A stretch of 53,067 nt of DNA from Candidatus Yanofskybacteria bacterium RIFCSPLOWO2_02_FULL_41_13 (GTDB taxonomy: Bacteria; Patescibacteriota; Minisyncoccia; 2-02-FULL-40-12; GWA2-44-9): positions 5,625 through 58,691 of the forward strand of contig MGKQ01000014.1 in the NCBI GenBank assembly GCA_001795735.1, read 5' to 3'. Positions within the stretch are counted from its first letter, which is position 1, and each line of letters begins with the position of its first letter. Below the pieces are notes generated by a model. The model saw only the letters and a program-made list of their open reading frames with translations, did no database searches and was not told where the DNA came from. The position numbers were made by a program, and so were the translations under genes. Positions 22,558-39,413 of this stretch are shown one piece after another.

Positions 22558-22567
22558 TTTATCCTTT

Positions 22568-22702
22568 CTAATAACCGTTATCGCATTTAATTTCTAGTCC
22601 AAAGGGCGTAAAAAACTCTACCTCATTAAAATCTTTATCTCGGAATTGAAAGGTCGCAAAGCTAGTGGGCTCATTACTTTTAAGGTTATTTGAGCTTTCC
22701 AC
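22568..22702 (-). CDS. Possible 44-aa small ORF directly upstream of recombinase 1
   Basis: Manual: GTG...MESSNNLKSNEPTSFATFQFRDKDFNEVEFFTPFGLEIKCDNGY; stop is followed by AAGGA and the recombinase start. Confidence 0.3.
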   Translation of the reverse strand: MESSNNLKSNEPTSFATFQFRDKDFNEVEFFTPFGLEIKCDNGY

Positions 22703-22775
22703 GGATTTTTATAAATAAAAATCCAATACTGTTCTCACTTTATCTAGCTTTTTTACTGGGGCTATTTTGCACTGG

Positions 22776-23285
22776 TTATTTATATACTTTTATATCACCT
22801 AAAAACGACGTAACCTCGCCGACTTTTTCGTCAGAGTAAGCGTCTTTTACTTCAAAATGCTGGTAGCCAGTAATAGCTTTTTTAAGCGTGGCTATTTTTG
22901 CCATAAAGTCTTTTTTAAATGCAACGGTTTGGGTATACCACGTAGCACCTGCATATACTACGGACGCTCTGTCGGAAAACTCGTAAGAGATAACTAAACC
23001 AGCTCGTTTTGCTAAGTCCATTACCTCATTAAGTTCTTTTTGTGCTGCCTCTTTAGACATTGTTGGACTAGCTGTCGGGGTTGCTGTTGGCTGGGATACG
23101 GTGTTAACTGGCTGATTTTGGACTGGTGAGATATTTTTACTATCGTCTGTAGCAGCACCAATTATGCCAATAAAAATAGTCACGGCTATCGTTGTTACAG
23201 TAACCCTTTTTCTAAAGCTCCAGCTTTTGTATTTTTGAATCCACGACCCCAAGCCTGTACCTGACATTTGTGTTTGTTGTTCCAT
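22776..23285 (-). CDS. Hypothetical membrane-anchored protein
   Basis: TM, Pro/Thr linker, small globular domain. Confidence 0.75.
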   Translation of the reverse strand: MEQQTQMSGTGLGSWIQKYKSWSFRKRVTVTTIAVTIFIGIIGAATDDSKNISPVQNQPVNTVSQPTATPTASPTMSKEAAQKELNEVMDLAKRAGLVISYEFSDRASVVYAGATWYTQTVAFKKDFMAKIATLKKAITGYQHFEVKDAYSDEKVGEVTSFLGDIKVYK

Positions 23286-23344
23286 TTTTTTAAATTATTT
23301 TTTATTTTTATGTCGCTCGACCTAACGACATTACACTACTATTT

Positions 23345-23502
23345 GGGCGGGCTTATTTAAACACAAAACCCGCCACAGGTGCGCCTTGCGGCGCATACAG
23401 GCCTTTCGACCTGCAACGTTCGACACGCCCTATGACGGGGTTAATATGTCGAACGGTTTTTTGCCATACCCACAAGAAAAAACCTGTGGGGTTAGGCAAC
23501 TC
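23345..23502 (-). ncRNA. Candidate multi-stem structured RNA or leader
   Basis: Minus-strand stems CGTTCGACA/TGTCGAACG, CAGGTC-GAAA-GGCCTG, TGCGCC-GCAA-GGCGCA (GNRA loops), CCCACAGG/CTTGTGGG. Confidence 0.55.
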
Positions 23503-23673
23503 TAATTTGTAGTTATTATAGCACATTTTAGGGTTCAGAGGTTTTAAGATTAATATTTTGGTTAATTTTGGTATTTAAAATTGATAAAAAATGGCTAATT
23601 ACCTAACAAATATGTGTTTTGTTCCCCCGTTTTTTAGTAATTTACTCAAAGTAACCCATATAAAACCTCATTT

Positions 23674-24516
23674 TCACTGGATTAATCTTCGGATAATATT
23701 GTTTATGTAAGCAGCAGGGTTATCAATTTTTTCTTTTGTTTTTAGTTCGTCAAAATGCTTGTAAGCTTGCTCTATTACTTTTAAACCGTGTTTATCGAGA
23801 ACTGAAAGTAAAAACTTCATATCTTGTTCCTCAACCTCTTGTGCTATAAGCCAAATCCTTTCCTCGTCCTTATTTTGTGGGTAAAAGCCATTATTGGTTA
23901 AAAGATTACGATTATTTAGTTTATTAAAAGGCGGCTTTGCCGCTCTTAATATATCGTAAGATATATTAAGAGTATTATTATCTTTTTTCTTATGGGTATG
24001 AGTATCCGTATTGTAACCTCTGACTTGGTTGGGTTTGAAAGGAAAAGAAAACATAGATAAAATGTCGTCTTTTTGCTTTTCCAACTTGTGACTAGCGGCT
24101 TCAACTTCGGGTTTAACCTCTGACTGGTTTGGGCTGTTTGTACTGTCCTCACTCGTGACCATTTCGGGATTAAAATACTTATCCAATGTTCTGATAATAT
24201 TATTAGGCATTATAAAATCACCAAAGTTCACCTCAAACGAACCTTTGCTACCCTGGCGGTCTTGATACCATATCAACTTTTTACCCCGTAATGACAGTAA
24301 TAATTTGTTAACGTAGTTCCCGCTAACCTTTCCGCCAAAAACGTCATTATTTATATCGCTTATACTTGTCACGGCTACCCCGTAGGGACTGCAATTAAGC
24401 CGTAAGTGCAGATACATAAAATACTCATTGCGGCTTATAACTTTCTTACGATAGAGCGACAAAATATCTCTTTGAAAATTAATCCAATTTTTAATTTTAT
24501 TTGGGCTGCTGCTCAT
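23674..24516 (-). CDS. Replication-initiator-like protein (putative wHTH N-terminus)
   Basis: YFMYLHLRLNCSPYG...VNKLLLSLRGKKLIWY wHTH-like; C-terminal KIDNPAAYINNII as in Rep/DnaD-type tails. Function inferred. Confidence 0.55.
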   Translation of the reverse strand: MSSSPNKIKNWINFQRDILSLYRKKVISRNEYFMYLHLRLNCSPYGVAVTSISDINNDVFGGKVSGNYVNKLLLSLRGKKLIWYQDRQGSKGSFEVNFGDFIMPNNIIRTLDKYFNPEMVTSEDSTNSPNQSEVKPEVEAASHKLEKQKDDILSMFSFPFKPNQVRGYNTDTHTHKKKDNNTLNISYDILRAAKPPFNKLNNRNLLTNNGFYPQNKDEERIWLIAQEVEEQDMKFLLSVLDKHGLKVIEQAYKHFDELKTKEKIDNPAAYINNIIRRLIQ

Positions 24517-24673
24517 AATTTTTTATGTTTTTGGTATTTTTATCTACAGGATTTTTAAGCCGGTACTCCGAGATAAATTCAGCAAGCGCAAGACAAGCGT
24601 CATAAAGCTGCTTATTTTTTTCTTTTTCACCCGTTTTATCGTCTAGGGTTTTATTTAACTTTCTATTTCTCAA
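24497..24673 (-). CDS. Possible 58-aa ORF overlapping the Rep-like start
   Basis: Manual: TTG...MRNRKLNKTLDDKTGEKEKNKQLYDACLALAEFISEYRLKNP...QQPK. Confidence 0.4.
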   Translation of the reverse strand: MRNRKLNKTLDDKTGEKEKNKQLYDACLALAEFISEYRLKNPVDKNTKNIKNYEQQPK

Positions 24674-24740
24674 ATTTAAATACCCCCAAGCAGCAGCCCC
24701 GCCGTTTGAGGGTATTTAAATGGGGCTGCAAACTTGTTTT

Positions 24741-24811
24741 AAACAAAAAACCCAGGTGATAAACACATAAACGCACGCAAAAAACGCGTATTTATGTGTT
24801 TACTACCTGGG
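24741..24811 (-). terminator. Long hairpin with U-tract upstream of Rep-like operon (attenuator-like)
   Basis: Minus strand CCCAGGT-AG-TAAACACATAAA...TTTATGTGTTTA-TC-ACCTGGG then TTTTTTGTTT. Confidence 0.6.
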
Positions 24812-25076
24812 TACTTAGGCCGTTTTAGGCATTATTTTGCCAAAAGATTGGATTGACCCCTATTGAGTGCCGCTAGGTTCCGTACTAAGTGGTATATGAT
24901 AACGGGTTTTGGTTATTTCCGTGTTTATACATTAACTTCACCGTGGGCAACGTGCAGTAAAACACTAAGGTATTTTGTGCCCTTTGGGACGGGCAACTTT
25001 GTTAATACGCAGATAATAGCACCCTGGTTTTGTAAGTCAACTATTTTAAGATATAATTAAAGCTAACACAGCCCCA

Positions 25077-26073: not shown

Positions 26074-27744
26074 TTATTTGGTGCCAACTGCGTAACACTT
26101 CCGCAACAGAGAAGGAGAAGCAGACACAAAAGTGTCTGTTTTTCTTGTAATAGAGCCATTACTTAGCGGTTCGAAAGTGTAATTATTGGCTTTTAGGTCT
26201 TCCGAGATTATTTGGAGTGGGAAAAGCACATTATCTAAGGAAATGCTCAGCTTTTTGTCTTTTAATATGAAGTTCGAACCTAAAACCGAAAGTATCTGTC
26301 TTTTCACTTGAAGATCCTTGGTTGTATCAAATTTCTTCTTAGCATTTTCGGCAAACCTAAATACATCCTCAGCTAGTTCGAGCCAGTGTTCAACTCTCTT
26401 CCCAATATTCTGCATCCCGTTCTCTAGGCGCTCTTTTTCTCTTAATGTCTCGGATTTCTTAGTCAGATACTCTTGTTCAGTTAGTTCTTTGGCAGCTCTC
26501 ATATCAATTAAACCATCCAGCTTTTTAAGACATAGGTCGTAAGCTCTTTCTTGAGTAGCTAAAATCTGACCGCGTTCTTCTGATTCTTTAGCATTTTCAG
26601 ATTTTAACCATTTCATCGCAAATTCGTGGAAATCAGTTGGTATTTCAATTTTTTCTATAATTGAAGCAACCTGCTCGTTTAGAACATGCTCCTGGATTGC
26701 GTGCTGAGTGCAGTTTCGATTTTTACTCTTAGTGCAACGATAAATAATATAGTGGTGGATCGTGCCATTTTTTTGTTTCTTATATTTATCCTCAATGGTT
26801 ATCTGGCTGGTACACTCCCCGCATTTTATTATCCCACCACCGTAAGTAAACATTTTATCTTTCCTTGGTTTGGCTTTTAGCTTACTTCCCAATAAGAATT
26901 GAACTCGATTAAAAGTTTCTTCGCCTATCATTGGTTCGTGAGATCCTTTATAAAAACTACCGCTGCCTCTCGGATATTCGAAATAGCCGTAATAAAAACT
27001 ATCGTTGAATATTTTATATAGCGTACTCATAGACATTGGGCGACCGCCCTGTCTTTTGGAAGCTCTACTTTTATAACCCCAATCGTCATTCATCATTTTT
27101 TGAATTCGCCTTACACTGTAAGTTCCCATCGCCATCAGCTCCCAAGCTTTTTTAATTAAATCAAATCTTTCTAAATCTTTTTTGATATATCTTGAACCAC
27201 CGGCTAATTCGGGAGTATTTAGATAACCTGCCGGAGCAACACCGGGCATAGAACCTCGTTCACATTTAGTGGTTAAACCTCTTTTAACAACTTTGCTTTT
27301 ATCATCTGAATCTTTTTTGGCTATACCAAACTCTAACTGTAAAAAGAATTTATCGTCAGATTCGTTATAGTAGGTTTTGGTTACTGTTTTTACTTCTTTG
27401 ACAGTGCCTTCGTCCATAGCAGTAATAATCCAACCACCATCAAAAGCATTCCGGGCCAAACGATTTCCATGCCAAGTTAAAATCGAATTTGCCTCTCCTC
27501 TCTCAAGTCCAGCCATCATAGTTCCAAATATTTTTCGGCCGCGAGTATGAGCTGATTTCTCTTCTCTAAAAATCTTAACGACATGGAGTCCTTGATCCTC
27601 GGCTAATCTCTTTAGCTCCTTTTCTTGAGATTCAATGGACTGCATTTGCCGCTCCTTATTATCCTCGGAACTCTTACGACAATACATGTAGTATTTAACC
27701 CTGTCAGTATTAGTATGTTTCATAAATTTGCTATATTTTACCAC
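26074..27744 (-). CDS. Large serine recombinase (element 2)
   Basis: YCRKSSED, RLARNAFDGG, GVAPAGYLN, Zn ribbon (CGEC...YRCTKSKNRNC), coiled coil. Confidence 0.93.
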   Translation of the reverse strand: MVKYSKFMKHTNTDRVKYYMYCRKSSEDNKERQMQSIESQEKELKRLAEDQGLHVVKIFREEKSAHTRGRKIFGTMMAGLERGEANSILTWHGNRLARNAFDGGWIITAMDEGTVKEVKTVTKTYYNESDDKFFLQLEFGIAKKDSDDKSKVVKRGLTTKCERGSMPGVAPAGYLNTPELAGGSRYIKKDLERFDLIKKAWELMAMGTYSVRRIQKMMNDDWGYKSRASKRQGGRPMSMSTLYKIFNDSFYYGYFEYPRGSGSFYKGSHEPMIGEETFNRVQFLLGSKLKAKPRKDKMFTYGGGIIKCGECTSQITIEDKYKKQKNGTIHHYIIYRCTKSKNRNCTQHAIQEHVLNEQVASIIEKIEIPTDFHEFAMKWLKSENAKESEERGQILATQERAYDLCLKKLDGLIDMRAAKELTEQEYLTKKSETLREKERLENGMQNIGKRVEHWLELAEDVFRFAENAKKKFDTTKDLQVKRQILSVLGSNFILKDKKLSISLDNVLFPLQIISEDLKANNYTFEPLSNGSITRKTDTFVSASPSLLRKCYAVGTK

Positions 27745-27795: not shown

Positions 27796-28701
27796 TTACC
27801 GGTCATTGCCTATATCTACGTCGATGGCGAATGGTATAGGAGGCCTTTCACCTCGACGAAGCGACTGCAATCTTTGTAATTCATGTATCGCCCTATAAAG
27901 ACCTTTTTCCAAGGAGGCCTCATAACGAGTAAGTTTTTCGAGAGTTTTATCATCCGGGATACTCTTTGCCATCAAGTCACTTTCGTCTTCGAGATGTTCT
28001 TTTTCTTCAATGTTTTTGAGGAAACTGCCAAATAATTCTTTTTGTTCCTGAACCAATTTAAGGAAAGCCTCCTTGGCAGCTTCTTTCGGAACCAGACAAG
28101 GTTCACCATCTATTTCCTCCTGCTTCATCATCACATTCATAGTCGCAGCCATAATAGCAAAATTGTTTCCTTCTTCACCGAACTGATTATGGATAAGATC
28201 TATAGTTTCATCAGATATAAAACCTTGGCTTTTAACCTCATCCTCGGCAGTTTCAACTAGCCCAATTAAACTTTGAATACCGAAAGATGCCTGAAACCTT
28301 TTAGAACGAAAAATATCTATAAGCTTCTGGTGTTGATTCTCTTGTTCTGCTCGCTTGGTAATACTATTAATCATGTGACTATCCTGCAATTTCCTGACTT
28401 CGCCTACTTCAGCCCTCATAACCCGTTGCAAGCGCCAATAGGAGCTGATAATGCGGTCTACGAGCATTTCCTCGGCTAATCCGATGGGCTGAAAATCCTC
28501 GACTAATCTTTCGGTGATAACTTCAAACATTTCTAAATCCTCTTCACCGTCGCCGGTGGTAATGATTGATGACTTAGATAAAATGCCGTGCTTCAAAGAA
28601 TTTAATTTACTGATTGATTTGCCATCATCTGAAGTTGGACCTGTCGATTTAAGGGCATTCTGCTGATTAGCAATAATTTGTTTTTCTGATATTTCGCTCA
28701 T
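27796..28701 (-). CDS. Hypothetical protein with N-terminal ANxxNAxKSTGP...N(S/A)LKHG motif
   Basis: ANQQNALKSTGPTSDDGKSISKLNSLKHGILS; LEKLTRYEASLEKGLYRAIHELQRLQ; co-oriented just upstream of recombinase 2. Confidence 0.8.
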   Translation of the reverse strand: MSEISEKQIIANQQNALKSTGPTSDDGKSISKLNSLKHGILSKSSIITTGDGEEDLEMFEVITERLVEDFQPIGLAEEMLVDRIISSYWRLQRVMRAEVGEVRKLQDSHMINSITKRAEQENQHQKLIDIFRSKRFQASFGIQSLIGLVETAEDEVKSQGFISDETIDLIHNQFGEEGNNFAIMAATMNVMMKQEEIDGEPCLVPKEAAKEAFLKLVQEQKELFGSFLKNIEEKEHLEDESDLMAKSIPDDKTLEKLTRYEASLEKGLYRAIHELQRLQSLRRGERPPIPFAIDVDIGNDR

Positions 28702-29163
28702 GCTAGTTAACTTTGTAGACTTCTATTTCCGACTTATCTTGATCGACCTTGTAAACTCTCCACCGGTCCTCGGGTAATATCCAATCGTGGTGAATAAAAT
28801 GTTTGGCATCATCTAATGTAAGAAAGCATCCTCGTTCTTTAAATTCTTTTTGATAGGAATTTTCATTTTTCCAGATAACCTTATAATGCGGGAATACATT
28901 TTTGGCATTTTTATTTGCTTCAAGTAATTCGTTGAACTCAATAACTTCGTCTGTCGTTCTGGCTATAAATTCCCACAAGTTATCCGAGATTTTATAGAAG
29001 ATAGTTTCTAATTCTTCAGCGGTCAGATTTCGCTCAAGGTATCCTTCTCCTGCTAATTCTTGAATGAAGTCAAAATCTATTATTATTTGTTCCTTATTAT
29101 TTATTGTATTTTCCATAGTTTTGGTTTTAGTTATTTTTTAATTTTTTCTGACATTTCGCTCAT
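28681..29163. repeat. 21-bp direct repeat (20/21) flanking a single gene
   Basis: TTTTTCTGATATTTCGCTCAT (28681-28701) and TTTTTCTGACATTTCGCTCAT (29143-29163). Confidence 0.85.
28703..29116 (-). CDS. Hypothetical protein (137 aa)
   Basis: Acidic ORF between the 21-bp repeats. Confidence 0.7.
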   Translation of the reverse strand: MENTINNKEQIIIDFDFIQELAGEGYLERNLTAEELETIFYKISDNLWEFIARTTDEVIEFNELLEANKNAKNVFPHYKVIWKNENSYQKEFKERGCFLTLDDAKHFIHHDWILPEDRWRVYKVDQDKSEIEVYKVN

Positions 29164-29180
29164 TTTTCCTATGTTATTAG

Positions 29181-29252
29181 CGCGACACAAACTCCGAATG
29201 TATCACTTAAAAGGTGTTCTCTACCGTCCTATCATTCGGAGTTTCTGTCGCG
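29181..29252. repeat. Inverted pair of the CGACAGAAACTCCGAATG motif
   Basis: CGCGACACAAACTCCGAATG (29181-29200, +) and CGCGACAGAAACTCCGAATG (29233-29252, -), 32-bp spacer. Confidence 0.9.
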
Positions 29253-30622
29253 TCAAATAAGTTTGGTGGGGGTAGTTCTTTTACCTCTTCTTCCACCTGA
29301 GGCATATTCTCAATGCCGTATGCCTTGGTTAGGGCATTCTGAATATCTTCTCTCAGGAACCAATGCCACGGTTGATTAGGTGGGCCATCAGGTTCTTTGT
29401 AGGCATCAACCATTTTAAGCGCTTCGAGCTCTTTAAACAGGCGCTGGAAGGTTCTATGAGACCGATGAGGTAACAAGGCCTGCAACTCCTTACTGGTTAA
29501 GGAAGGGCGGGTATTTAATTGCTTAAACAACTGCTGGACGGCTTCGGCCCGATCAACAGGCATTGTTGAAAGACCGATTTCAGCTAATGTTTTCATCTCG
29601 TCCGTGGTTACAGTTTCCTTGCCCCGGACTATGGCTAAGTAACGGCTCAGCCCCCTTAGCTGAAGTAACGCCCGCCAAGGTTCCTCGACTTGAACATCTT
29701 CGACCTCGTAATAGGTTCTGTCCTTGCCTTCATCATCTTTGAATGACTGCTGTTTGGTTAAAACAGTGCCCCTCCCCCTAGATACCAATACCGCCAAGCC
29801 ATTTAATATCTCCTGAATATTTACATCTTCCGGCAATAGGATTGGATTTTTGCCATCAATTTGGGTTATATATGAATACATAATCTCTCGGGCATATTTA
29901 ATTAATCCTTTACGCTTTTCACTCTGCCAAGCGATACCGAAACCTTTTCTTTCCCGTTCAGAAGTAAGTTCTGGCAACCTGATAAACAAAAATCTGGCTC
30001 CGATCATATCGATATATCGGCGATGTTTATTTAATGCTGCCGGAGTGATACATCCTAATAAAGAAAACTTAGCTTTATATGACTTCAGTCCTCTTGTCGG
30101 AGAAAACTTGGCAAATTCCTCGTCGTAAATTGCGACGAGTTCTCCTAAAAGTTTTTTAACCGTCTCCTCGTTTAAGGAAAATAGGGTGGTCATATCTCGA
30201 ATGACAAGACACTTATTATCCAACTCATCCAATAGGTCATAGCTTTTACGACCTTTAGGAGCTACATAGCCGGACGAGAAAGGATTGCTTGTCAGGGTAT
30301 CGAGATAATAGATATGCGATAATCCACGAAGTGCTTTAACGAGCTCCGTTTTCATTGATGATGGTGGTCCAACAAGAACACCCCAAAGTGGCACATCAGC
30401 AAGGTCAGATTTAAGCGAGGAGTAAGCAATTGCCATTGCAATATCAATTACTTCACGGCTAACGGCTCCGATTTTCTCAAAAGCTTGATATACTTCCTCA
30501 AGCTCAATGTGTCGGGTTATTAATTCAACATCAGGATCCTTTTTATTATCCTTAATCTCAGATTCAATTTTCTGAAACTCTTTTTCAATCTGAGGTTCTA
30601 CTTTTGTATAATCTTGTTCCAT
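29207..30622 (-). CDS. AAA+ ATPase, putative replicative helicase
   Basis: Walker A-like LVGPPSSMKT, Walker B-like CLVIRD, RFL motif, C-terminal wHTH-like; downstream of primase-like and SSB-like genes. Confidence 0.7.
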   Translation of the reverse strand: MEQDYTKVEPQIEKEFQKIESEIKDNKKDPDVELITRHIELEEVYQAFEKIGAVSREVIDIAMAIAYSSLKSDLADVPLWGVLVGPPSSMKTELVKALRGLSHIYYLDTLTSNPFSSGYVAPKGRKSYDLLDELDNKCLVIRDMTTLFSLNEETVKKLLGELVAIYDEEFAKFSPTRGLKSYKAKFSLLGCITPAALNKHRRYIDMIGARFLFIRLPELTSERERKGFGIAWQSEKRKGLIKYAREIMYSYITQIDGKNPILLPEDVNIQEILNGLAVLVSRGRGTVLTKQQSFKDDEGKDRTYYEVEDVQVEEPWRALLQLRGLSRYLAIVRGKETVTTDEMKTLAEIGLSTMPVDRAEAVQQLFKQLNTRPSLTSKELQALLPHRSHRTFQRLFKELEALKMVDAYKEPDGPPNQPWHWFLREDIQNALTKAYGIENMPQVEEEVKELPPPNLFDATETPNDRTVENTF

Positions 30623-30723
30623 CGTCAGTGAGTACCGTCTCCAGTTCGGATCCTTGATAGCGGGGACTCACTGGAAGCCTTTCGCTACAAGAACCCGAAC
30701 TGATTACAAAGGCGGTCATTAGA

Positions 30724-31023
30724 TTAATCGTTTTCCCAAGTTTCAATTTCAAAGTTTTTATATTCTCTGCCGGTTTTCTCGGACATAACGAAACCAAGAA
30801 ACTTAATCTGAAGTTTCGTTCCGACAGCCATTTCTTTTAAGTGATTATCGAGCAAGGTATTCCCCCAAAACGAAACCTCTTTACCGTCTTCTTTTTTGAC
30901 AAAATACATATTGGAACCATTCTTGCCCTGATTTTCCTTAACGCCCACATATTCACCTTCTAAATCACCATTCTCTTCAAAGTTCCAAATATCTGACTTC
31001 TTAATTAATTTCTTCCAAGCCAT
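30724..31023 (-). CDS. Small OB-fold ssDNA-binding-like protein
   Basis: WNFEENGDLEGEYVG...VSFWGNTLLDNHL...LQIKFLG...YKNFEI; function inferred. Confidence 0.55.
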   Translation of the reverse strand: MAWKKLIKKSDIWNFEENGDLEGEYVGVKENQGKNGSNMYFVKKEDGKEVSFWGNTLLDNHLKEMAVGTKLQIKFLGFVMSEKTGREYKNFEIETWEND

Positions 31024-31030
31024 TTCTATT

Positions 31031-31654
31031 TTAAATTCCGTTAAGAAATCTTACGGCGTCAGGAAATTTGAGACCGTTTAATTCCATAACGAAACTGATT
31101 GCGTCGCCTTTTTTGCCACATCCATAACAGTGAAAACGATTTTCAGGATAAACATAAAATGAAGGCGTTTTCTCATTATGAAAGGGGCATAAGGCAACTG
31201 ATTTATTTCCTAATTTTTTAAACTGCCCATTAACTACATTTTCTATTGGTGCTACCCTCGCTCTCTCTATATCTTCCTCGGTAAGCCGTCCTTTGGGGAC
31301 TCGACCTCGACTTACCGACTTTAATCGTTTCAACCGCTCAATATTCTGATTTATTTTTAATAACTCCGGACCATCAAATACCTTTACAATCTCCCGCCAG
31401 AACCATTGATTCTCTGGAGCTGATTTTTGGCTAATTACTGACAATTTTCTTTTTATAATGACGGCCACCCTATCTCCTTCTTCCTGCCATTCGGCAATCT
31501 TTTCTGGTATGATTTCTCGGGCTTCTGGAAATATGTTGAGTAGCTCACTATCCGAAAGTTTCGGCTGAACACTTCGCCATTGTTTTTCTAAATCCCAGGC
31601 ATAATTCAAAAAATCCAAATCAATATTTTCAGTTTTGTTTTGTATTTGGTTCAT
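31031..31654 (-). CDS. CHC2 zinc-finger (DnaG N-terminal-like) protein
   Basis: CPFHNEKTPSF...FHCYGCGKKGDAISFVMEL; no TOPRIM domain follows. ATG 31654 or GTG 31675. Confidence 0.88.
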   Translation of the reverse strand: MNQIQNKTENIDLDFLNYAWDLEKQWRSVQPKLSDSELLNIFPEAREIIPEKIAEWQEEGDRVAVIIKRKLSVISQKSAPENQWFWREIVKVFDGPELLKINQNIERLKRLKSVSRGRVPKGRLTEEDIERARVAPIENVVNGQFKKLGNKSVALCPFHNEKTPSFYVYPENRFHCYGCGKKGDAISFVMELNGLKFPDAVRFLNGI

Positions 31655-31805
31655 TTTCTTTTTGTTCTTTGCCACTAATGTAAACGGCTTTGTATAAATT
31701 CACTAAGTTATTGGCCCTTAGTGCCGCCTCTTCAACGGAAAGCTCAATGCCATAATGGCGAAGGTATAGTTCCCGGTATTCTTTTATGGCTTCTGGTGGT
31801 AACAT
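31629..31805 (-). CDS. 58-aa hypothetical protein (missed by ORF track)
   Basis: Manual: MLPPEAIKEYRELYLRHYGIELSVEEAALRANNLVNLYKAVY...; fills the gap and overlaps both neighbours' boundaries as in an operon. Confidence 0.7.
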   Translation of the reverse strand: MLPPEAIKEYRELYLRHYGIELSVEEAALRANNLVNLYKAVYISGKEQKENEPNTKQN

Positions 31806-31806
31806 T

Positions 31807-32082
31807 TTAAAAGTTATCTTGATAAAGTTTTTCCTTTAAAATCTTTATTGACTGGATTAGCTTCCTTGAATCGACCATCACCTCGGAATTATTTTCTCTG
31901 CCAAAATTAAAACTCTCCGTTAGCGTCATTCGCTCTGGAGAATCATTAAAGATAAATGCCGATCGTCTCGGATCAGTAATCTTATCGATATTTAGTAGCT
32001 CAATTCCTTTTGCAAATAGAAAAACCGCAAGATAAAAACTTGTGGTTCTGAAATGTTCTTTTTGATGTGGATCCTTATTCAT
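31807..32082 (-). CDS. DUF5659-like small protein
   Basis: FRTTSFYLAVFLFAKGIELLNID...RSAFIF; ATG 32082 preferred. Confidence 0.65.
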   Translation of the reverse strand: MNKDPHQKEHFRTTSFYLAVFLFAKGIELLNIDKITDPRRSAFIFNDSPERMTLTESFNFGRENNSEVMVDSRKLIQSIKILKEKLYQDNF

Positions 32083-32144
32083 ATGCTTATAGGGGCTGCC
32101 TCCCCTCAATACATAATGGGTCCACATCTGTCAGCTAAAACTAA

Positions 32145-32167
32145 AAGACCCCTTATTGGGGGGTCTT
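32145..32167 (-). terminator. Hairpin after the 501-aa gene
   Basis: AAGACCCC/GGGGTCTT stem followed on the minus strand by TTAGTTTT. Confidence 0.5.
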
Positions 32168-32185
32168 GGTCTTTATTAAATATTT

Positions 32186-33691
32186 TTATTTCCGGCGATA
32201 CTTGCTGCGTTTTTTAATTAGCTCTTGAGCTGAATTGAAATCGTCTTCTGTGTAACAACGATACAAACCAACTCTTCGGGGACTCAAGATCTTATTTAGG
32301 TCCCATCTTTTGAGAGTAGTCCTTGAAACTCCGGTCATAGTTATGAATGTATCTCTTTTCCAACCCACTTTTTCCCCATTTTTATCTTTTAGATCATAGG
32401 GTGACAATGTTCCTAGATTTTCATCTATATCTTTCTGTGATATGTCGTCGAAGCCAAACAGAGATGTGTTACTTTTATATTTGGATGTCCCTAGCCTTTT
32501 TGGATTTAGATCTTTTAAAGCTTCCTCACTAAATATAGATGAATCACCCTCATATTCCGAGCCTCCTAGCTTTTTGCGCATTAAATCTTTTAAAGCTCTT
32601 TCATAAAATGCGGTAAACGGATATTCGTCTGAATCTGTAACTAAACCCAACCGGGTTAATAATCCGCCGCGACCGATAAGAGAAAATAATTTAGGTTCGT
32701 GGAAATTTTTTTCAAGCTTTTTTGCAGATGCGTAGAAAAAATCGAAAGATTTTAATTTTGGTGCTATTTCTTGTTTTATCCACTCTGTCATTTCTGCCTT
32801 CTTATCTTCGCTAAAATACGTCCCCGATCGTTTCTCGTACTGATTAATACCCGATCTTAATAATGGCTCATACATCAAGAAAAGCTGTTCACGAAATGCC
32901 GGCCCCAATTTCGGATGGGGTAAGGGTTTAAAGAATGCCATGGCAACTATATAATTATTAACTTGCTGATATTCTTTGGTATTTTTTAGTTGAGAAAAGG
33001 TTTTATTATTAAACGGTAACTTTAAATATCGAAAATAATCATCCCACTGAAGTAGGGGTAAAACTTCAAATCCGTAGAAGCCATCTTGATATAAGCAAAG
33101 TCTTTTCCACTCTTCTTCGAATGATTTTTTGAATTTATCATCGGATTTAATGGTATATAGCTCAAGATGTTTTAGATTAAGAAAACTGAATGATACGTAT
33201 TGAAATTTATCTAAAAATGAAACAACAAAATCGGGATAACCCTCTTCTTTAACATACTCCTTACTGTTTATTTTTAATGTTTCGAGTAGGACTTTTAAGG
33301 TTAGCCTCTTTAATGTCTCCTCGTCATTGCTTAAATATACACGCCAATATTCTAAATTTTTTAATATTTTAGATTCGAGACCGGGAATTAATATATCCAA
33401 TAAAAACGTTAAGACCTCCTCTCCCGGTCTTTTTATTATCTCCTCTCGCAAATTATAAAAATCCTCATCATCTAATGAGTAGCCGGGAGCTGGTTTTTGG
33501 CTCAAGATCCATTTTTTATAAATTTTAAGGAGGGCGGGGTGTAATTTAAGATATTCGACATACTCCTCCTCAAATACTGGTGTCACAGTAAAACTATCTA
33601 GCGCTATATTTCTAGTTCTACTGCTCAGACAATCGCGAACAGACTCCTCCCGTAGGGCCTGATAAAAAGGTTTTGTATTCTTATTTTCCAT
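32186..33691 (-). CDS. 501-aa protein with C-terminal MerR/excisionase-like HTH
   Basis: C-terminal MTGVSRTTLKRWDLNKILSPRRVGLYRCYTEDD. Confidence 0.7.
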   Translation of the reverse strand: MENKNTKPFYQALREESVRDCLSSRTRNIALDSFTVTPVFEEEYVEYLKLHPALLKIYKKWILSQKPAPGYSLDDEDFYNLREEIIKRPGEEVLTFLLDILIPGLESKILKNLEYWRVYLSNDEETLKRLTLKVLLETLKINSKEYVKEEGYPDFVVSFLDKFQYVSFSFLNLKHLELYTIKSDDKFKKSFEEEWKRLCLYQDGFYGFEVLPLLQWDDYFRYLKLPFNNKTFSQLKNTKEYQQVNNYIVAMAFFKPLPHPKLGPAFREQLFLMYEPLLRSGINQYEKRSGTYFSEDKKAEMTEWIKQEIAPKLKSFDFFYASAKKLEKNFHEPKLFSLIGRGGLLTRLGLVTDSDEYPFTAFYERALKDLMRKKLGGSEYEGDSSIFSEEALKDLNPKRLGTSKYKSNTSLFGFDDISQKDIDENLGTLSPYDLKDKNGEKVGWKRDTFITMTGVSRTTLKRWDLNKILSPRRVGLYRCYTEDDFNSAQELIKKRSKYRRK

Positions 33692-33742
33692 TCTTATTTT
33701 TACTGAAAGTAGCTTAATTTAAGCATTTTCTCAAGACCTATC

Positions 33743-33764
33743 AGCACGACAGAAACTCCGAATG
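33743..33764 (+). repeat. 22-bp motif, direct-repeat copy A
   Basis: AGCACGACAGAAACTCCGAATG, identical to 38217-38238. Confidence 0.95.
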
Positions 33765-33822
33765 TTGCCTATAGCTCGGAAATGTATTACCCTATATCCA
33801 GCATTATTAACAAGGAGCTGTC

Positions 33823-34221
33823 ATGGCCGATCACGTAGAAAAAGATAGCTATTTCCAAAGATTACTAAAATCCTATCTGGATTATCGTCCTGGAAGCGAA
33901 CGAGAACTCGCCGATGAGTTTAGGACGGCGGTTGGTACCATAACCAGATGGGCAAATGGACATTCTCGTCCTGCTCAAAAAGCAGAACAAGCAATCGTCT
34001 CAGCTCTTCAGGAGAAAATATACCGAGAATTACAAGATACATTAATTAATCATCTTATGGATAATAACGACCACCTTACAGTTGATTTTGCATCGGAACT
34101 TGCTTCTGAGTTTGAAGTAGCTAAATCGACAGTAAGGCGTTGGGCAAACGGAACGGCTCGTCCACATCCGCGACTTGCCCTGATGATTATTGGATATGTG
34201 AAAAATAGGGAGACAAAGTAG
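33823..34221 (+). CDS. Tandem XRE-like HTH protein
   Basis: Two repeats: ELADEFRTAVGTITRWANGHSRP and ELASEFEVAKSTVRRWANGTARP; SD AAGGAG. Confidence 0.75.
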   Translation: MADHVEKDSYFQRLLKSYLDYRPGSERELADEFRTAVGTITRWANGHSRPAQKAEQAIVSALQEKIYRELQDTLINHLMDNNDHLTVDFASELASEFEVAKSTVRRWANGTARPHPRLALMIIGYVKNRETK

Positions 34222-34223
34222 TC

Positions 34224-34508
34224 ATGACCATCAAATCAATTCCTCGTTCTGCTCCAAAGCAGATGCTTCCAGGTCTGAAGTTATCCGACTTAGTCCAATT
34301 ACGGACTGCCGATTATTCTCAAGACAAAAGAGATGCGTCAACAAAATATCTGCCAGCCAATACAGTCGGTAAAGTCAAAAATATTTACGACATGGGAGGA
34401 CTAAAACGACATCTGAGGCATCATCGTTTCCTAATCTATCTCCGAATTCCCGGACATCCTGAAACCAATTTCTGGTCTGAAGAATTAACCAAAGTGAGAG
34501 TACGATAA
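34224..34508 (+). CDS. Hypothetical protein
   Basis: Operonic spacing with neighbours. Confidence 0.55.
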   Translation: MTIKSIPRSAPKQMLPGLKLSDLVQLRTADYSQDKRDASTKYLPANTVGKVKNIYDMGGLKRHLRHHRFLIYLRIPGHPETNFWSEELTKVRVR

Positions 34509-34690
34509 TGAGTTTATCTAAAGGACCCGGTTTCTTTCTTCGATTAGAGGAACGACTTGAAGAAAAAGAACCGCCCAAACCGACATGCTGCAAAATTACT
34601 GATCCATGTGTTGAGTCGTGTGTGGATGACTGGATAGAATGGGAAAGATATCAATCTAATTTATCAAGGGGAGAAGATAAAAATGTTTGA
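34508..34690 (+). CDS. Small hypothetical protein
   Basis: Stop/start overlap with both neighbours. Confidence 0.4.
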   Translation: MSLSKGPGFFLRLEERLEEKEPPKPTCCKITDPCVESCVDDWIEWERYQSNLSRGEDKNV

Positions 34691-34868
34691 CCTGATAATT
34701 GTTTGGGTTGGCATAATTCTAAAAATTATTTACGCATTAATGCTATCAGTTGTAATCTATAGCCTGCAGTGGATTATATATCCTCTTCGTCTCCTAACCG
34801 CACAATGTCTGGGGAATGATTTTCCTCATGCACCAGTATACCCACCGAAATGCTCCCAGATTCTATAA
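34683..34868 (+). CDS. Small hydrophobic hypothetical protein
   Basis: One long TM; overlaps previous stop. Confidence 0.4.
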   Translation: MFDLIIVWVGIILKIIYALMLSVVIYSLQWIIYPLRLLTAQCLGNDFPHAPVYPPKCSQIL

Positions 34869-34971
34869 GGAGTCTAATGAAGCAGCCGACTGATCGTCGG
34901 TTTTTTGTTGAAATAAAAGAGCCCCGGCAGAGGTCGTGCATTCTACACGGGGCTCTCTGTCGGGGCTTACT

Positions 34972-35721
34972 TCACCACTTCACCATAAATGGTGGCGGGA
35001 TATTCACGAGGCTCAATCGAGCGGCTTCGAGGAAGCCGAGAATTGCTCCAAAGTGACTCAGGTTGGCTTCCGAAGGAAGCCTGTGTCCTCTCAGCTTGAG
35101 CATATGTTGGATCATGGGTTGGCTGAGGTGATTCTCTCGACCCTCCTCCACGATGCCACGGAACATACAACCAAGCATAGCCTGAATGCACCTGACCTCT
35201 TCGAAAACGTCGAAGCCACGTTTCGATCTCCCTGGATTTACTTCGAGCTCTCGTTGAAGTGTATCTTTCATCCAGCGTACCGCATGAATGGCCAACCGAT
35301 CACTTGCGGCGGCGACGATCTTTCTGGCTATGTGATCCTGATAGCCGACGGCTCGTAAATGGTCGATAACGGCAGGATGGAGGTATTTCCGTTGGCCGTC
35401 CTCTTTGTCATTCTTGAGCAGTTGGTACCAATGAGCCGCACCAAGAATTGCGTCACGCATTCCCCAGTGGCTAGGATCGTAGTCGCTGATCAGATCCTTG
35501 AGCTCATCACGAAGTTCTGTCGGAAGCTGGGCGAGAAAATCCTCGTCCGAGAGTTCCGACAAATGCTTACGAAGCCCACCCTTTAGAAGTGGCTGACTGA
35601 TGATCATTTCCACGATCCTCAGATCAGTCAAATCCTGACGAGTGGGGGTGTATGGATTTGCCAGAGTGGATACTGGCACCTCCAGGGACCGAATTATTGC
35701 TTCGATTGTGTACTGAAACAT
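34972..35721 (-). CDS. Hypothetical protein (249 aa), GC-rich
   Basis: SD GGAGG upstream; consensus promoter at 35926-35954 on the minus strand. Confidence 0.75.
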   Translation of the reverse strand: MFQYTIEAIIRSLEVPVSTLANPYTPTRQDLTDLRIVEMIISQPLLKGGLRKHLSELSDEDFLAQLPTELRDELKDLISDYDPSHWGMRDAILGAAHWYQLLKNDKEDGQRKYLHPAVIDHLRAVGYQDHIARKIVAAASDRLAIHAVRWMKDTLQRELEVNPGRSKRGFDVFEEVRCIQAMLGCMFRGIVEEGRENHLSQPMIQHMLKLRGHRLPSEANLSHFGAILGFLEAARLSLVNIPPPFMVKW

Positions 35722-35925
35722 GACTTTCCTCCTGGTCCAACCGCTGGACCACTTGCATGTCAGGATCCTACTATCCGTGACGGTTTGTGCGGTTTGTGTT
35801 CTCTGCGAAGTAGGTCGCTGAGAGGGAGGAAAGAAAGGTCTTCTCCCTACAAAATACTCACATTGGATATAAGGACTTTGCAGGAAGAAGACTAGATATT
35901 ATGTTAAAAAGCAGTGTGTTTCTAT

Positions 35926-35977
35926 ATTATACCAAAAAATCACTACTATTGCAAGGGGTATAAAAATATGGTATAAT
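35926..35977. promoter_or_regulatory. Symmetric bidirectional sigma70 promoter sharing one -35 hexamer
   Basis: Palindromic TTGCAA (35949-35954) with TGG-TATAAT 17 bp away on both strands (35972-35977 plus; 35931-35926 minus). Confidence 0.8.
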
Positions 35978-36024
35978 ATCGGGGTAGTTGGGATTTCCCC
36001 AACCTACACTCAGGAGGTATCTCG

Positions 36025-36471
36025 ATGAGTACCTTAACAGAAAAGATTCGACAGGCAGTTGCGGAGATGAAAGATCGTCGGTACGGCGTGAAGGGCGAGA
36101 TTGTTTTCGTGTTCAAACCACCGCTGGAGAACCCCGATCTGGATGCACTTCGAAGTTCCATCAAGGAAGTCGACAAGCTCTTTCCCTGGAAAGAGGACGA
36201 TGTTCCCGATGGAGCCGAGAAGCCACCGAGTATCTTTTATCTCGGTAATGGCCAGGTGGTCGTTCACAACTTCCATCCGAAGGAACAGCACATCTGGTTC
36301 TCGGTCCATCCTCGATACGATTCGATGCGACGAGGTCAGATCTATGCATACGAAAAGTATCTCGCCAAGTTGGCGGAAGAGTTGATGAAGCCGAAGCAGA
36401 ACAACTACTGGCCGGCCTCGGTCAGGAGTGTGATCACGATTAAAGCGGTAACCAGTTTCAAGGCCTTTTAG
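36025..36471 (+). CDS. Hypothetical protein (148 aa)
   Basis: SD AGGAGGT; downstream of consensus promoter. Confidence 0.75.
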   Translation: MSTLTEKIRQAVAEMKDRRYGVKGEIVFVFKPPLENPDLDALRSSIKEVDKLFPWKEDDVPDGAEKPPSIFYLGNGQVVVHNFHPKEQHIWFSVHPRYDSMRRGQIYAYEKYLAKLAEELMKPKQNNYWPASVRSVITIKAVTSFKAF

Positions 36472-36488
36472 GTCAGGAGGAGCGAACA

Positions 36489-36998
36489 ATGAAGACACCA
36501 TGGCTCATTCAGCGTTGCGAACTTGGCAACGGGAAACTCAAGTACGACTACATGGGTTCCACGGAGTTTGAGGTCGGTGACCAATCAAAGTCCCTCAAGC
36601 GAATCTTCGCCCAAGGGATCGAGACAGGTGTAACGACGATCAATGTCGAATCGGCGCAGACCACGTTAAGCGCGGGCGGTGGCATGACATCGCAGTCAAC
36701 CTATCGTCAGTTCGCCGACGTCCGTGTCTATATGGTGGCCGGCAAGGGATTCAATTTCGCCGACTACCAGACCTATCTGCAGCAGCTCGCAGACCACAAG
36801 TTGCGTCTGCAGGAAGGGACCTATTTCGATTACAGGGTCAAGGCACAAGTGGGCAACAAGCCTGAACTTCGTTCCTTCTCGCTGACCAACGCCTGGTTCG
36901 ATTTCCAGAACGATGTCCTCTGGACCCTTACGGAGGACGACCAGAAAAACCTCCTCTCGGTCCTCGAGGATATCAAGCAGACCTGGGCGTCGAAGTAG
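36489..36998 (+). CDS. Hypothetical protein with DYMGSxEFE motif
   Basis: SD AGGAGG; YDYMGSTEFEVG. Confidence 0.75.
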   Translation: MKTPWLIQRCELGNGKLKYDYMGSTEFEVGDQSKSLKRIFAQGIETGVTTINVESAQTTLSAGGGMTSQSTYRQFADVRVYMVAGKGFNFADYQTYLQQLADHKLRLQEGTYFDYRVKAQVGNKPELRSFSLTNAWFDFQNDVLWTLTEDDQKNLLSVLEDIKQTWASK

Positions 36999-37012
36999 TA
37001 AGCGGTAGTTAA

Positions 37013-37067
37013 AAGCTCCGCACAGAGAAGTTCCAAACTTCGTCTTGTGCGGAGCTTCTTTGTTTTT
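37013..37067 (+). terminator. Intrinsic terminator
   Basis: AAGCTCCGCACA/TGTGCGGAGCTT stem followed by CTTTGTTTTT. Confidence 0.75.
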
Positions 37068-37111
37068 ATTATCTGTTCAATTTACCTAATTTCTGTTAAT
37101 TTCTAATAATT

Positions 37112-37570
37112 ATGAGTAATTCAAAACAAAAATTAATCGAACTTCAAAAAGAGGACAAATATTTATTCCATGGTTCACCAGCTAAAGATATAAAGGAGTT
37201 GGAGCCTCGTCAGTCATATACTATTCCAAAAGGTAAAACAGAGCCAATTAAAGATGGGCCGTCATCAGTATCAGCCACTCCTTATTTAGAGGTGGCAATT
37301 TTTAGGGCAATAGTAGTTAATGGCAGGAGCAGTTTTAGCGTGTCGGCGAATACAATAGAAGATGCTGTAATAAAATTTACTGCTAACCAAGAGGCAATCG
37401 AGGATGCTAAAAATAGAACGAGCTATATATATGTTTTGGATAGAAAAGATTTTACACCGAGAACCGGTAATGCTCATGCTATGGAATGGATATGTGAAAA
37501 CCCGGTAAAACCTATTTCAGTTTTTGAAGTTAATTTCAGCGATCTCTCTAGCGAGATTGAAATTATATAA
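37112..37570 (+). CDS. Putative ADP-ribosyltransferase-fold protein
   Basis: YLFHGS...ELEPR...VSATPYLEVA...YIYVL pattern resembling H-G-S/T ART-fold proteins; inference. Confidence 0.5.
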   Translation: MSNSKQKLIELQKEDKYLFHGSPAKDIKELEPRQSYTIPKGKTEPIKDGPSSVSATPYLEVAIFRAIVVNGRSSFSVSANTIEDAVIKFTANQEAIEDAKNRTSYIYVLDRKDFTPRTGNAHAMEWICENPVKPISVFEVNFSDLSSEIEII

Positions 37571-38239
37571 ATGATTACAAAAGAAGAATTTTACGAACGC
37601 TATGTAAATCATTGGATGAGGAGCGATATTAACTCCATGCGAAATCATGGTAATAATTTCCCCTTGGCTCTATGTACCCTTTCATATATAGAATTCTTAG
37701 GAAGTATTCTTACGGGCAATGGAAAACTCTATAGAGATAATGTAAAAAAATATATAGATGAATGCTTTAATAAGAAAGATTATGACATAAACATACTTTG
37801 GGACGTATTTAGAAATGGACTAGCTCATGACTATTTTCCAAGGGGAGGAGTAAGTAAGGAGGGTCCTGGTCCTATGCTTAAAATTGATAACAAAATGGTA
37901 TTGAATATTATGGATTTTTCGAAAGAATTCTTAGATTCATTAGATCAATTTAAAATCACTTTAGACAAGGAAGAAAATATAAAAAACTTTGGTGCCAGAA
38001 TAAAAGAAATGACGGATCGGACAGCAGAACTTGAGACAGATCATTTACATAAATTAACCGAGTTTATTTTTCCTGTACAAGCAAGAGACTCGACTGGGTC
38101 TATTTTTACCGAAATCGCTCCTTCATCGGGTCCAACTAAACTCGTCTCTCAAACTATTGCAGGTTATCCTATGGCCATTTCCGCTTTAGATAATGGCGTA
38201 GTAATAAAAGAACAGGAGCACGACAGAAACTCCGAATGA
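37571..38239 (+). CDS. Putative HEPN-domain protein
   Basis: Helical protein with FRNGLAH (RxxxxH); abuts previous ORF (TAA|ATG). Confidence 0.6.
   Translation: MITKEEFYERYVNHWMRSDINSMRNHGNNFPLALCTLSYIEFLGSILTGNGKLYRDNVKKYIDECFNKKDYDINILWDVFRNGLAHDYFPRGGVSKEGPGPMLKIDNKMVLNIMDFSKEFLDSLDQFKITLDKEENIKNFGARIKEMTDRTAELETDHLHKLTEFIFPVQARDSTGSIFTEIAPSSGPTKLVSQTIAGYPMAISALDNGVVIKEQEHDRNSE
38217..38238 (+). repeat. 22-bp motif, direct-repeat copy B
   Basis: AGCACGACAGAAACTCCGAATG; forms the last codons of the HEPN-like ORF. Confidence 0.95.
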
Positions 38240-38316
38240 CGTTACCAAGTCCTAACAAATTGAAATGGCCAATAGCCGGAAACTGCCATAATTGCGGAAT
38301 GTAAGTCCTTCAACCC

Positions 38317-38482
38317 CCGCAACAGAGTAGGGCTAATGGACGAGAAGTCGCCCGTTTGTCTTTTGCCAGTGCGGTTTTTTGACAGGTCCCAACCGACCAT
38401 TACTAGATTTCGACTCTTTTACAATGGTTTGAACCGGGAATATCACGTTATCCAAGTCCAACGTGAGTTTCTTATAGAAAAA
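38317..38482 (-). pseudogene. C-terminal remnant of a third serine recombinase
   Basis: Manual: KKLTLDLDNVIFPVQTI...LGPVK[+1 frameshift in A6]NRTGKRQTGDFSSISPTLLR, matching recombinase 2 KKLSISLDNVLFPLQII...FEPLS...TDTFVSASPSLLR; crosses the third core. Confidence 0.85.
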
Positions 38483-38686: not shown

Positions 38687-38763
38687 TGGCGAACCAGACA
38701 GGATTTGAACCTGTGACCCTCGGCTTAGAAGGCCGATGCTCTATCCAGCTGAGCTACTGGTTC
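38687..38763 (-). tRNA. tRNA-Arg (TCT)
   Basis: GAACCAG/CTGGTTC, loop CTTCTAA, encoded CCA. Confidence 0.95.
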
Positions 38764-39297: not shown

Positions 39298-39374
39298 TGG
39301 TGGGCCCAGCAGGGGTCGAACCTGCAACCAACCGGTTATGAGCCGGACGCTCTGCGCTATTGAGCTATGGGCCC
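39298..39374 (-). tRNA. tRNA with CAT anticodon, most likely Ile2 (lysidine type)
   Basis: GGGCCCA/TGGGCCC, loop CTCATAA, encoded CCA, no initiator features; D-loop lacks GG. Confidence 0.85.
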
Positions 39375-39413
39375 CCTCCCCAGTTTTTTTCTAAAACTGG
39401 GGAGGGGGCCCAT
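39367..39413. repeat. Perfect 21-bp inverted repeat overlapping the tRNA 5' end
   Basis: ATGGGCCCCCTCCCCAGTTTT-TTTCT-AAAACTGGGGAGGGGGCCCAT. Confidence 0.9.

Follow-up and report, generated by a model that had tools for sequence, protein, structure and literature searches.

A 28-bp DNA box linked to the rep gene of Patescibacteria integrative elements, a candidate recognition site of an MCM-like Rep module

Element 2 is a small integrative element within a 53,067-nucleotide stretch of contig MGKQ01000014.1 of Candidatus Yanofskybacteria bacterium RIFCSPLOWO2_02_FULL_41_13; this whole stretch, about 53 kb, is referred to here as the window. The element contains four copies of a 20-nucleotide motif, which comparison with related elements revealed to be the core of a non-palindromic box of about 28 bp (TAGnGG-GACA-N-AAACTCCG-…). 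The box is conserved throughout a family of elements, is constrained at the DNA level, sits at fixed positions relative to the replication gene (rep), occurs independently of the type of integrase and marks the mosaic boundaries between elements. The explanation that we favor, and to which we give about an even chance of being correct, is that the box is a cis recognition site of an MCM-like Rep module, that the rep-proximal pair of boxes would be the origin or loading site, that the distal copies would be auxiliary, and that the box would double as a crossover point. Rep as the binder, the pair as an origin and the role of the distal copies are proposed here from comparisons of sequence. No description of the box or of its element family was found in the literature searched, and the box is, in that literature, a previously undescribed variant resembling an initiator-binding site.

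An earlier note on this DNA had placed four copies of the motif in element 2, and a pattern search of the whole window returned them at the same coordinates. With up to three mismatches allowed, the degenerate 20-mer CRCGACASAAACTCCGAATG had exactly four matches, all with 0 mismatches to the pattern, against an expectation of 0.01 (100 shuffles). A 28-nt weight matrix derived from the relatives (TAGnGG GACAGAAACTCCG…; threshold ≥12 bits) scored these four copies at 28.6-32.4 bits and the rest of the 53 kb at no more than 11.3 bits, so that the claimed absence of the motif outside element 2 holds within the window by both methods. Copy 1 (29181..29200, extended 29178-29205; + strand; 29.6 bits) is non-coding and lies 6 bp past the rep stop codon; viewed in the direction of rep, it forms the inverted (-) arm of the rep 3'-end pair and has a homologous copy in the related loci L004-L007. 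Copy 2 (29233..29252, extended 29228-29255; - strand; 30.6 bits) falls within the last 15 rep codons, where it encodes ...ATETPND... and forms the sense (+) arm relative to rep at position +1373 from the rep start. The two copies face each other across 32 bp, as had been noticed, and this spacer is 37.5% GC (guanine plus cytosine). Copy 3 (33745..33764, extended 33742-33769; + strand; 28.6 bits) is intergenic between the divergent genes for a 501-amino acid (aa) protein and a tandem helix-turn-helix (HTH) protein, within a 41-bp island (33725-33765), outside of which that part of the element shows no DNA similarity to L004. Copy 4 (38219..38238, extended 38216-38243; + strand; 32.4 bits) overlaps the end of a 222-aa gene and supplies its last six codons and TGA, in a frame other than that used in rep; its counterpart at the distal end of L004 is degenerate (L004 3682-3709; 25.2 bits). 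Copies 2 and 4 are the two gene-end copies of the earlier description, and copies 3 and 4, which start 4474 bp apart, are identical over 22 bp (AGCACGACAGAAACTCCGAATG), again as described. The reported distance of 78 bp between copy 4 and the attachment (att) core was also reproduced when measured to the right copy (38317..38327) of the 11-bp direct repeat CCGCAACAGAG, a candidate core. Partial echoes of the 3' end of the box, CGGAAATGTA (33778-33787) and GCGGAATGTA (38295-38305), sit 14 bp downstream of copy 3 and 57 bp downstream of copy 4, respectively, and may be sub-sites or chance matches.

Neither chance nor an assembly artefact accounts for the motif, given the shuffle expectation and its recovery in independent assemblies. 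Assemblies from NCBI, ENA and JGI together contained the same Rep on 23 or more contigs, and the window was 100% identical over 21.4 kb to contig MGJR01000025.1 of GCA_001794375.1, which argues that the element itself is not a product of assembly. The motif copies were unaltered in a variant of the element that is 99.8% identical, which also speaks against an active exchange of cassettes. A second possibility raised at the outset, that the motif is simply common genome-wide, was contradicted by a search of 185,579 species genomes in which the exact 20-mer had only three matches, one of them beside a rep homologue in a Saccharibacteria metagenome-assembled genome (MAG). A genome-wide repeat or a motif resembling an uptake sequence was likewise rejected, since neither the host DNA of the window nor the host sequence flanking the relatives contains the box. 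Viral collections held no match to the motif, and IMG/VR held no relatives of Rep.

Across the family, 52 non-redundant loci (598 kb) contained 96 matches at ≥12 bits, compared to 0-1 in shuffles. Beyond L002 and L004-L015, 80 metagenome loci with Rep homologues were searched for the core GACA-N-AAACTCCG, which recurred there with Reps of as little as 36% identity; overall, the box accompanied Reps ranging from 97% to 36%. Hosts of the scanned loci included Yanofskybacteria and Saccharibacteria, and Rep homologues were also named from Daviesbacteria and Gottesmanbacteria. Positions were surveyed in the 52 non-redundant loci plus L004 and were counted relative to residue 1 of the window Rep. 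A 5' box in sense orientation occurred at +53 to +111, in the linker ahead of the AAA+ core, and a 3' box in antisense orientation occurred between +1204 and +1348 (mainly +1279 to +1312), directly past the winged helix; often, another sense box was located about 28 nt beyond the antisense box, the two together forming an imperfect palindrome of about 59 bp. These positions correspond to the borders of the folded AAA+/winged-helix core in an AlphaFold model. Most family boxes lie inside the rep open reading frame (ORF), where they encode SGTETP and PAEFLS.

An inverted pair straddled the 3' end of rep in L004-L007 (97% identical Rep) and was also present there in L008-L015 (62-65% identical Rep, tyrosine integrases) and in the Saccharibacteria MAG, L002, which was found by an exact-pattern scan; the spacers between core 20-mers across these loci were 32, 10, 10 and 8 bp. 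In total, an adjacent inverted pair was seen in 19 of the 53 loci surveyed for position. The window, L004 and L005 were atypical in lacking a 5' copy, in having a convergent pair with a 32-bp spacer, whereas most others had a divergent pair with cores separated by 8-10 bp (which leaves about 3 bp from one 28-bp box to the next), and in having two distal copies that point the same way, the first 2.6-3.1 kb upstream of rep and the second at the far end of the element. The same layout was kept in the window and L004 despite full turnover of the adjacent genes. In L101 (81% identical Rep), the rep 3' end showed a + - + arrangement that may be an intermediate state. The earlier statement that the motif organizes element 2 was thus an understatement, the box being a feature of the whole family, and the layout on which it was based is an atypical variant.

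Rep was the only protein common to all box-bearing elements. The box accompanied serine and tyrosine integrases (L008-L015) alike, and most boxes lie within rep and not at element ends. Of the binding-site versions entertained in the earlier note, att arm sites are not supported by these observations, since relatives with the same box pair have tyrosine integrases rather than a serine recombinase. Iterons at an origin are the best supported version, because of the linkage to rep, the constraint on the DNA, and a position 3' of rep with a primase gene upstream, as at the origins of self-loading helicases. The tandem-HTH and 501-aa proteins, which had been named as possible partners, had no homologue in any of the 95 related loci and therefore cannot be the conserved partner of the box. 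In the very distant Rep homologues L105 and L107 the box was not found. L105 (28% Rep identity, high-GC host, tyrosine integrase) contains instead a 13-nt direct repeat, CGGCTCAGTCC(T/G)C, three times between 5375 and 5763, in the vicinity of the rep 3' end and within the 410-bp intergenic stretch behind it; these repeats may be the iterons of that lineage.

Constraint on the nucleic acid, and not on the peptide, was evident from codon usage. A third-codon-position profile was replaced by a test on occurrences picked by peptide and not by DNA, in Reps less than 85% identical to each other, since the tails misalign in a protein-guided codon alignment. ACA GAA ACT encoded the TET of every one of the 19 TETP peptides and CCG the proline of 18, although the background frequencies of ACA, GAA, ACT and CCG in the same genes were 0.32, 0.67, 0.31 and 0.23. 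Synonymous codons are thus frozen. Moreover, the box is read in three frames, as TETP in rep, DRNSE* in the 222-aa gene and KSRHKLRIV in the serine recombinase of L083, and it also occurs in non-coding DNA. The L083 box (12878-12905; 30.9 bits) lies in the sequence coding for the catalytic domain of that recombinase (…GIKSRHKLRIVETL…).

A constraint on synonymous sites is equally compatible with boxes that act as RNA or as a single strand, in which case a hairpin or a long-range stem would serve processing, stability, attenuation or priming. Most loci do have at least one complementary pair that includes the copy at the rep 3' end, and such pairs would make stems of 17-25 bp. However, the arms of the pairs did not covary: the freely variable position was pairable in 7 of the 19 adjacent pairs, which is the level expected by chance, at least one difference was present in 18 of the 19, and the arms differed at up to 5 of 13 core positions, with C/G mismatches in the core. 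Single copies that have no partner are conserved (copies 3 and 4, L004 7416 and L083 12878), the orientation of the box to transcription varies between lineages and copies, and Rfam had no match at any copy. We therefore regard action at the RNA level as highly improbable; the missing covariation and the single copies favor a duplex DNA target in which each box is recognized singly. At the pair of copies 1 and 2, no U-tract terminator was called, and scans of the copies for sigma-70 promoters or terminators performed no better than shuffles. A promoter is also unlikely because the box of L008 and L012 includes the start codon of the following gene.

The most likely reader of the box would be the conserved C-terminal winged helix of Rep. 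The rep gene (29207..30622, - strand) encodes a 471-aa protein, a candidate MCM-like AAA+ helicase with the P-loop GPPSSMKT, a winged helix at approximately aa 340-435 and, behind it, a disordered tail in whose coding sequence copy 2 lies. An AlphaFold2 model built from 62 sequences had a pLDDT (predicted local distance difference test) of 87.5. In a Foldseek search of the PDB, 49 of the 50 listed top matches were MCM2-7 or archaeal MCM proteins (E ~1e-8, probability 1.00), and the exception, at rank 34, was a chain of the human ORC-Cdc6-Cdt1-MCM loading complex. The TM-score (query) against MCM chains was 0.35-0.46, and the resemblance is at the level of the fold only; Rep had no match in Pfam, MCM included, and weak profile matches to winged HTH regulators at positions 331-415. 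The model and the C-terminal winged helix led us to name the protein Rep and to treat it as a candidate MCM-like initiator-helicase. Its 95 homologues are all from the Candidate Phyla Radiation (CPR)/Patescibacteria wherever the source names them; the Pfam domains HTH_24 and MarR_2 occur among them, and many are fused to Toprim or PrimPol primases. Outside the ATPase motifs, few parts of Rep are as well conserved as the predicted recognition helix, [KR]S.[KR]T..R.L.EL, in which S388 and R394 are nearly invariant, as would fit a DNA target that does not vary. L069, the locus whose recognition helix diverges most, had no detectable box, but two further loci without a box have a normal helix, which weakens this argument.

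The arrangement is reminiscent of the pathogenicity islands of Staphylococcus aureus (SaPIs), in which pri lies upstream of rep, the origin is immediately 3' of rep, and the C-terminal winged helix of Rep binds iterons in opposite orientations (PMC9371898). SaPI Reps are described as 'self-loading' initiator-helicases, those of the Rep2 type being MCM-like members of superfamily (SF) 6, and their iterons are 5-6 bp long, number 6-12, flank an AT-rich region and vary between SaPIs (PMC9371898). The elements studied here are likewise small and integrative, have a primase gene upstream of or fused to rep, encode an AAA+ helicase with a predicted C-terminal winged helix, and have repeated sites of opposite orientation directly 3' of rep. 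They differ from SaPIs in having two or three boxes of 20-28 bp without an AT-rich center, in having boxes often within the rep ORF with an extra one at the 5' border of the helicase core, and in a box sequence that hardly varies even among Reps as little as 36% identical. At the sequence level, no homology between this Rep and the SaPI Reps was detected; the likeness is one of fold, and to MCM only. By analogy, the box would work like an initiator-binding origin box without belonging to the SaPI iteron class.

Other replicons share single features with this system. The alpha protein of phage P4 is an SF3 primase-helicase with a C-terminal DNA-binding domain, and P4 has an ori and a distal crr, both cis-acting and both composed of multiple octamer iterons; one of these two loci adjoins the replication gene. 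As in P4, helicase and origin binding would be combined in one protein, and a site is repeated at loci that are kilobases apart, here the rep-proximal pair and copies 3 and 4 at 4.5 and 9 kb; in contrast to P4, the helicase is MCM-like and not SF3, and the P4 octamers are present in multiple copies. The ori of phage lambda lies inside gene O and consists of four 19-bp dyads, which lie beside an AT-rich region and, among lambdoid phages, covary with the N-terminal domain of O. In both lambda and the present family, sites occur in frame in the inter-domain linker of an initiator gene (a candidate initiator in the case of rep) and DNA constraint overrides codon choice, although O is not a helicase. 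The Cch protein of the staphylococcal cassette chromosome mec (SCCmec) and primase-MCM fusions resemble this system in placing an MCM-fold AAA+ helicase beside, or fused to, a primase in an integrative element. We know of no report of a conserved DNA box that flanks the MCM-like helicases, such as SCCmec Cch, of bacterial and archaeal mobile elements.

In the mechanism that these likenesses suggest, the inverted pair that straddles the rep stop codon (copies 1 and 2) would be the probable origin or helicase-loading site, and copies 3 and 4 might serve as auxiliary Rep sites, for example in copy control or looping, as fork barriers or as a distal cis-replication region. Several observations weigh against this mechanism. 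The case for Rep as the binder is built on co-occurrence and on conservation of the winged helix, and we know of no general sequence specificity among MCM winged-helix domains. Known iterons are short and numerous and covary with Rep, whereas the family has two or three long boxes that are nearly invariant although its Reps have diverged widely. No AT-rich unwinding element was found; the GC content of the spacer (37.5%) compares to about 39% for the element, and the DNA downstream of the boxes is, family-wide, only 3-4% more AT-rich than average. The orientation of the pair varies by lineage, which is awkward for a fixed dimeric complex, and distal copies are rare outside the lineage of the window and L004.

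A conserved host factor could account for some of these difficulties. More generally, the box may be read by a protein other than Rep, either a conserved CPR host factor or another backbone protein of the element, such as the 301-aa or DUF5659 protein, and may be an operator, a partition-like site or a fork-barrier site. A core that is near-invariant across Reps of only 36% identity is more typical of a site for a host factor, no AT-rich unwinding region was found, and copy 3 is in a divergent promoter region with a TTGAGAAAAT flank in common with L004. On the other hand, no box occurs in the host part of the window or in host sequence flanking the 52 non-redundant loci, the exact 20-mer is as rare among species genomes as described above and has a rep for a neighbor in one of those few cases, and box positions are fixed relative to rep. 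Many elements with the box lack the 301-aa and DUF5659 proteins, and promoter-like matches in the region occur at chance frequency. We consider a reader other than Rep unlikely.

The box also marks the places where related elements cease to resemble each other. In an all-against-all comparison of the non-redundant loci, 145 of 362 homology segments that cross rep stopped no more than 10 bp from the 3' edge of the last box, and only 2 of the 362 ended at the rep stop codon. Homology ended less sharply on the left, at the 5' box (22 of 147). One group of elements with 85-90% identical Reps had at least four unrelated kinds of sequence right behind the box, and among L045, L047, L051 and L052 no pair had protein-level similarity over the next 1-2.6 kb past it. 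Between the window and L004, the replication module was 88% identical and the cargo between the distal copies was wholly different. From these alignments, the box appears to be a place of module exchange between elements. Under the favored reading, in which the box is a Rep-module site, it would act as the crossover point for replacement of flanking modules, including the 4.45-kb cargo, because it is the only near-identical stretch common to otherwise diverged elements. Exchange boundaries are to be expected wherever a conserved functional site is the sole patch of homology, and the boundary pattern does not by itself require a dedicated recombinase.

The alternative is that the boxes are dedicated sites for site-specific recombination or cassette exchange, cut at their edge by an enzyme as in integron attC sites or a shufflon. 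Homology between relatives does stop at the outer box edge with repeated replacement of the downstream genes, the cargo lies between direct copies that are identical over 22 bp and have a private variant in common, ORFs in the window and L004 run into the box and stop there, and the typical pair is an imperfect palindrome at a gene 3' end. Integron attC sites and the boundary sequences of phage mosaics are similarly short, conserved or palindromic sequences at gene 3' ends where exchange occurs. There is, however, no IntI-type integrase and no cassette array here, and neither serine nor tyrosine integrases, nor any other recombinase, track the box. The 222-aa cargo gene has homologues in three other contexts, none of them with the box, so gene and box do not travel together as a mobile cassette. 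Positions fixed family-wide inside rep would be unexpected for cassette sites, and ordinary recombination at the sole homology patch would give the same boundaries. Deletion or inversion isoforms, which the earlier note had proposed to look for, were absent from five independent assemblies standing for 23 contigs, all of them colinear with the window, an observation made at the level of assemblies and with limited sampling. Cassette exchange or inversion as suggested in that note is consequently consistent with the evolutionary history of the elements, in the breaks at the box edge and the replaced downstream genes, and is not borne out as an active process; we find dedicated recombination sites quite unlikely.

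Also doubtful, and to the same degree, is a related idea in which the box is a family-wide module-junction signal and a process that is independent of a recombinase, for example one coupled to replication, starts or ends at the box edge and joins arbitrary DNA. If this were true, CPR elements would trade primase domains, Rep tails, downstream genes and cargo in box-bounded units, and the four copies in element 2 would delimit three exchangeable modules.

Copies 3 and 4 might, lastly, have no present function and be recombination scars or duplicates of the rep-proximal box. Distal copies are rare in the family, the private 22-bp variant common to copies 3 and 4 suggests a recent common origin, and the distal copy of L004 is degenerate, with three mismatches. 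In opposition to this, the three-position layout and its orientation persist in the window and L004 where all neighboring genes differ, and the island at copy 3 is conserved with unrelated DNA on either side. We judge it very unlikely that the distal copies have no present function.

The ultra-small CPR/Patescibacteria are uncultivated, and the replication of their mobile elements is almost uncharted. A searchable 28-bp box appears to mark the replication module throughout a widely distributed family of these elements and offers a handle with which elements can be found and delimited in metagenomes. The Rep winged helix and the box form a concrete candidate protein-DNA pair that can be tested in vitro without culture of the host, and together they may provide a minimal replicon for CPR genetic tools. 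As a DNA signal that overrides codon choice, in three frames of three genes, the box is unusually clear-cut; it also coincides with mosaic junctions and bears on how mobile elements exchange modules.

Element 2 contains, in order and all on the - strand, genes for a serine recombinase, the 301-aa and 137-aa proteins, Rep, a 99-aa protein, a CHC2 primase-like protein, the DUF5659 protein and the 501-aa protein; past these are the divergent tandem-HTH gene and about 4.4 kb of cargo on the + strand that could not be annotated. The large serine recombinase (556 aa; 26074..27744, -) overlaps the left candidate att core with its 3' end: the left copy of the 11-bp direct repeat (26101..26111) is inside the recombinase ORF, 27 nt ahead of the stop codon. 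If the repeat is the true crossover, approximately the last nine recombinase codons would be host-derived when the element is integrated and altered on excision. The 301-aa gene (27796..28701, -), located downstream of rep, belongs to the family backbone and is also present in L004, L022, L081 and L083. Between it and rep is the 137-aa gene (28703-29116, -), an insertion relative to L004-L007. The insertion measures 441 bp (28702-29142) and has on either side one copy of a 21-bp direct repeat (28681-28701 and 29143-29163), a duplicate of the 21 nt with which the 301-aa gene begins, with a decapitated mini-ORF (MSEMSEKIKK*) right after copy 1.

Upstream of rep, a 99-aa backbone gene (30724..31023, -) that is kept in relatives separates it from the gene for a 214-aa primase-like protein with a DnaG-type CHC2 zinc finger (31031..31675, -), which is in the same operon as rep. 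The DUF5659 gene (106 aa; 31807..32127, -) is a recurrent member of the family backbone. Between it and the 501-aa gene, a hairpin resembling a bidirectional terminator, AAGACCCC…GGGGTCTT, was observed at 32145-32167, from which the 501-aa gene (start at 33691, -; divergent from the tandem-HTH gene) is probably a transcription unit of its own, apart from the replication genes. The cargo block between copies 3 and 4 (33823..38239, +) opens with the tandem-HTH gene (132 aa; start at 33823, +) and continues with small ORFs and genes for proteins of 148, 169, 152 and 222 aa. No cargo protein had a homologue in any of the 95 related loci, and searches of the cargo with Pfam, PHROGs, NCBIfam and PADLOC returned nothing except HTH domains. 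The middle of the cargo (35-37 kb) is 49-52% GC compared to 36-42% in the remaining element, and is probably foreign DNA; overlapping long ORFs occur in the cargo at 34972-35721 (-), 34936-35358 (+), 36025-36471 (+) and 36034-36501 (-).

The smaller element 1 (window positions 20962-25000) has neither the box nor a Rep homologue; its 531-aa serine recombinase overlaps a tRNA-Met (20968-21039) with its 3' end. On the other side of element 2, the element copy from another assembly that is 99.8% identical (L098 1-1184) diverges completely from the window beyond 38757, just past tRNA-Arg (38687-38763), which points to a population variant or a rearrangement of the host tRNA cluster adjoining the element. 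In the same region, a perfect 21-bp inverted repeat with a 5-nt loop (39367-39413) overlaps the end of an annotated tRNA-Met (39298-39374, -).

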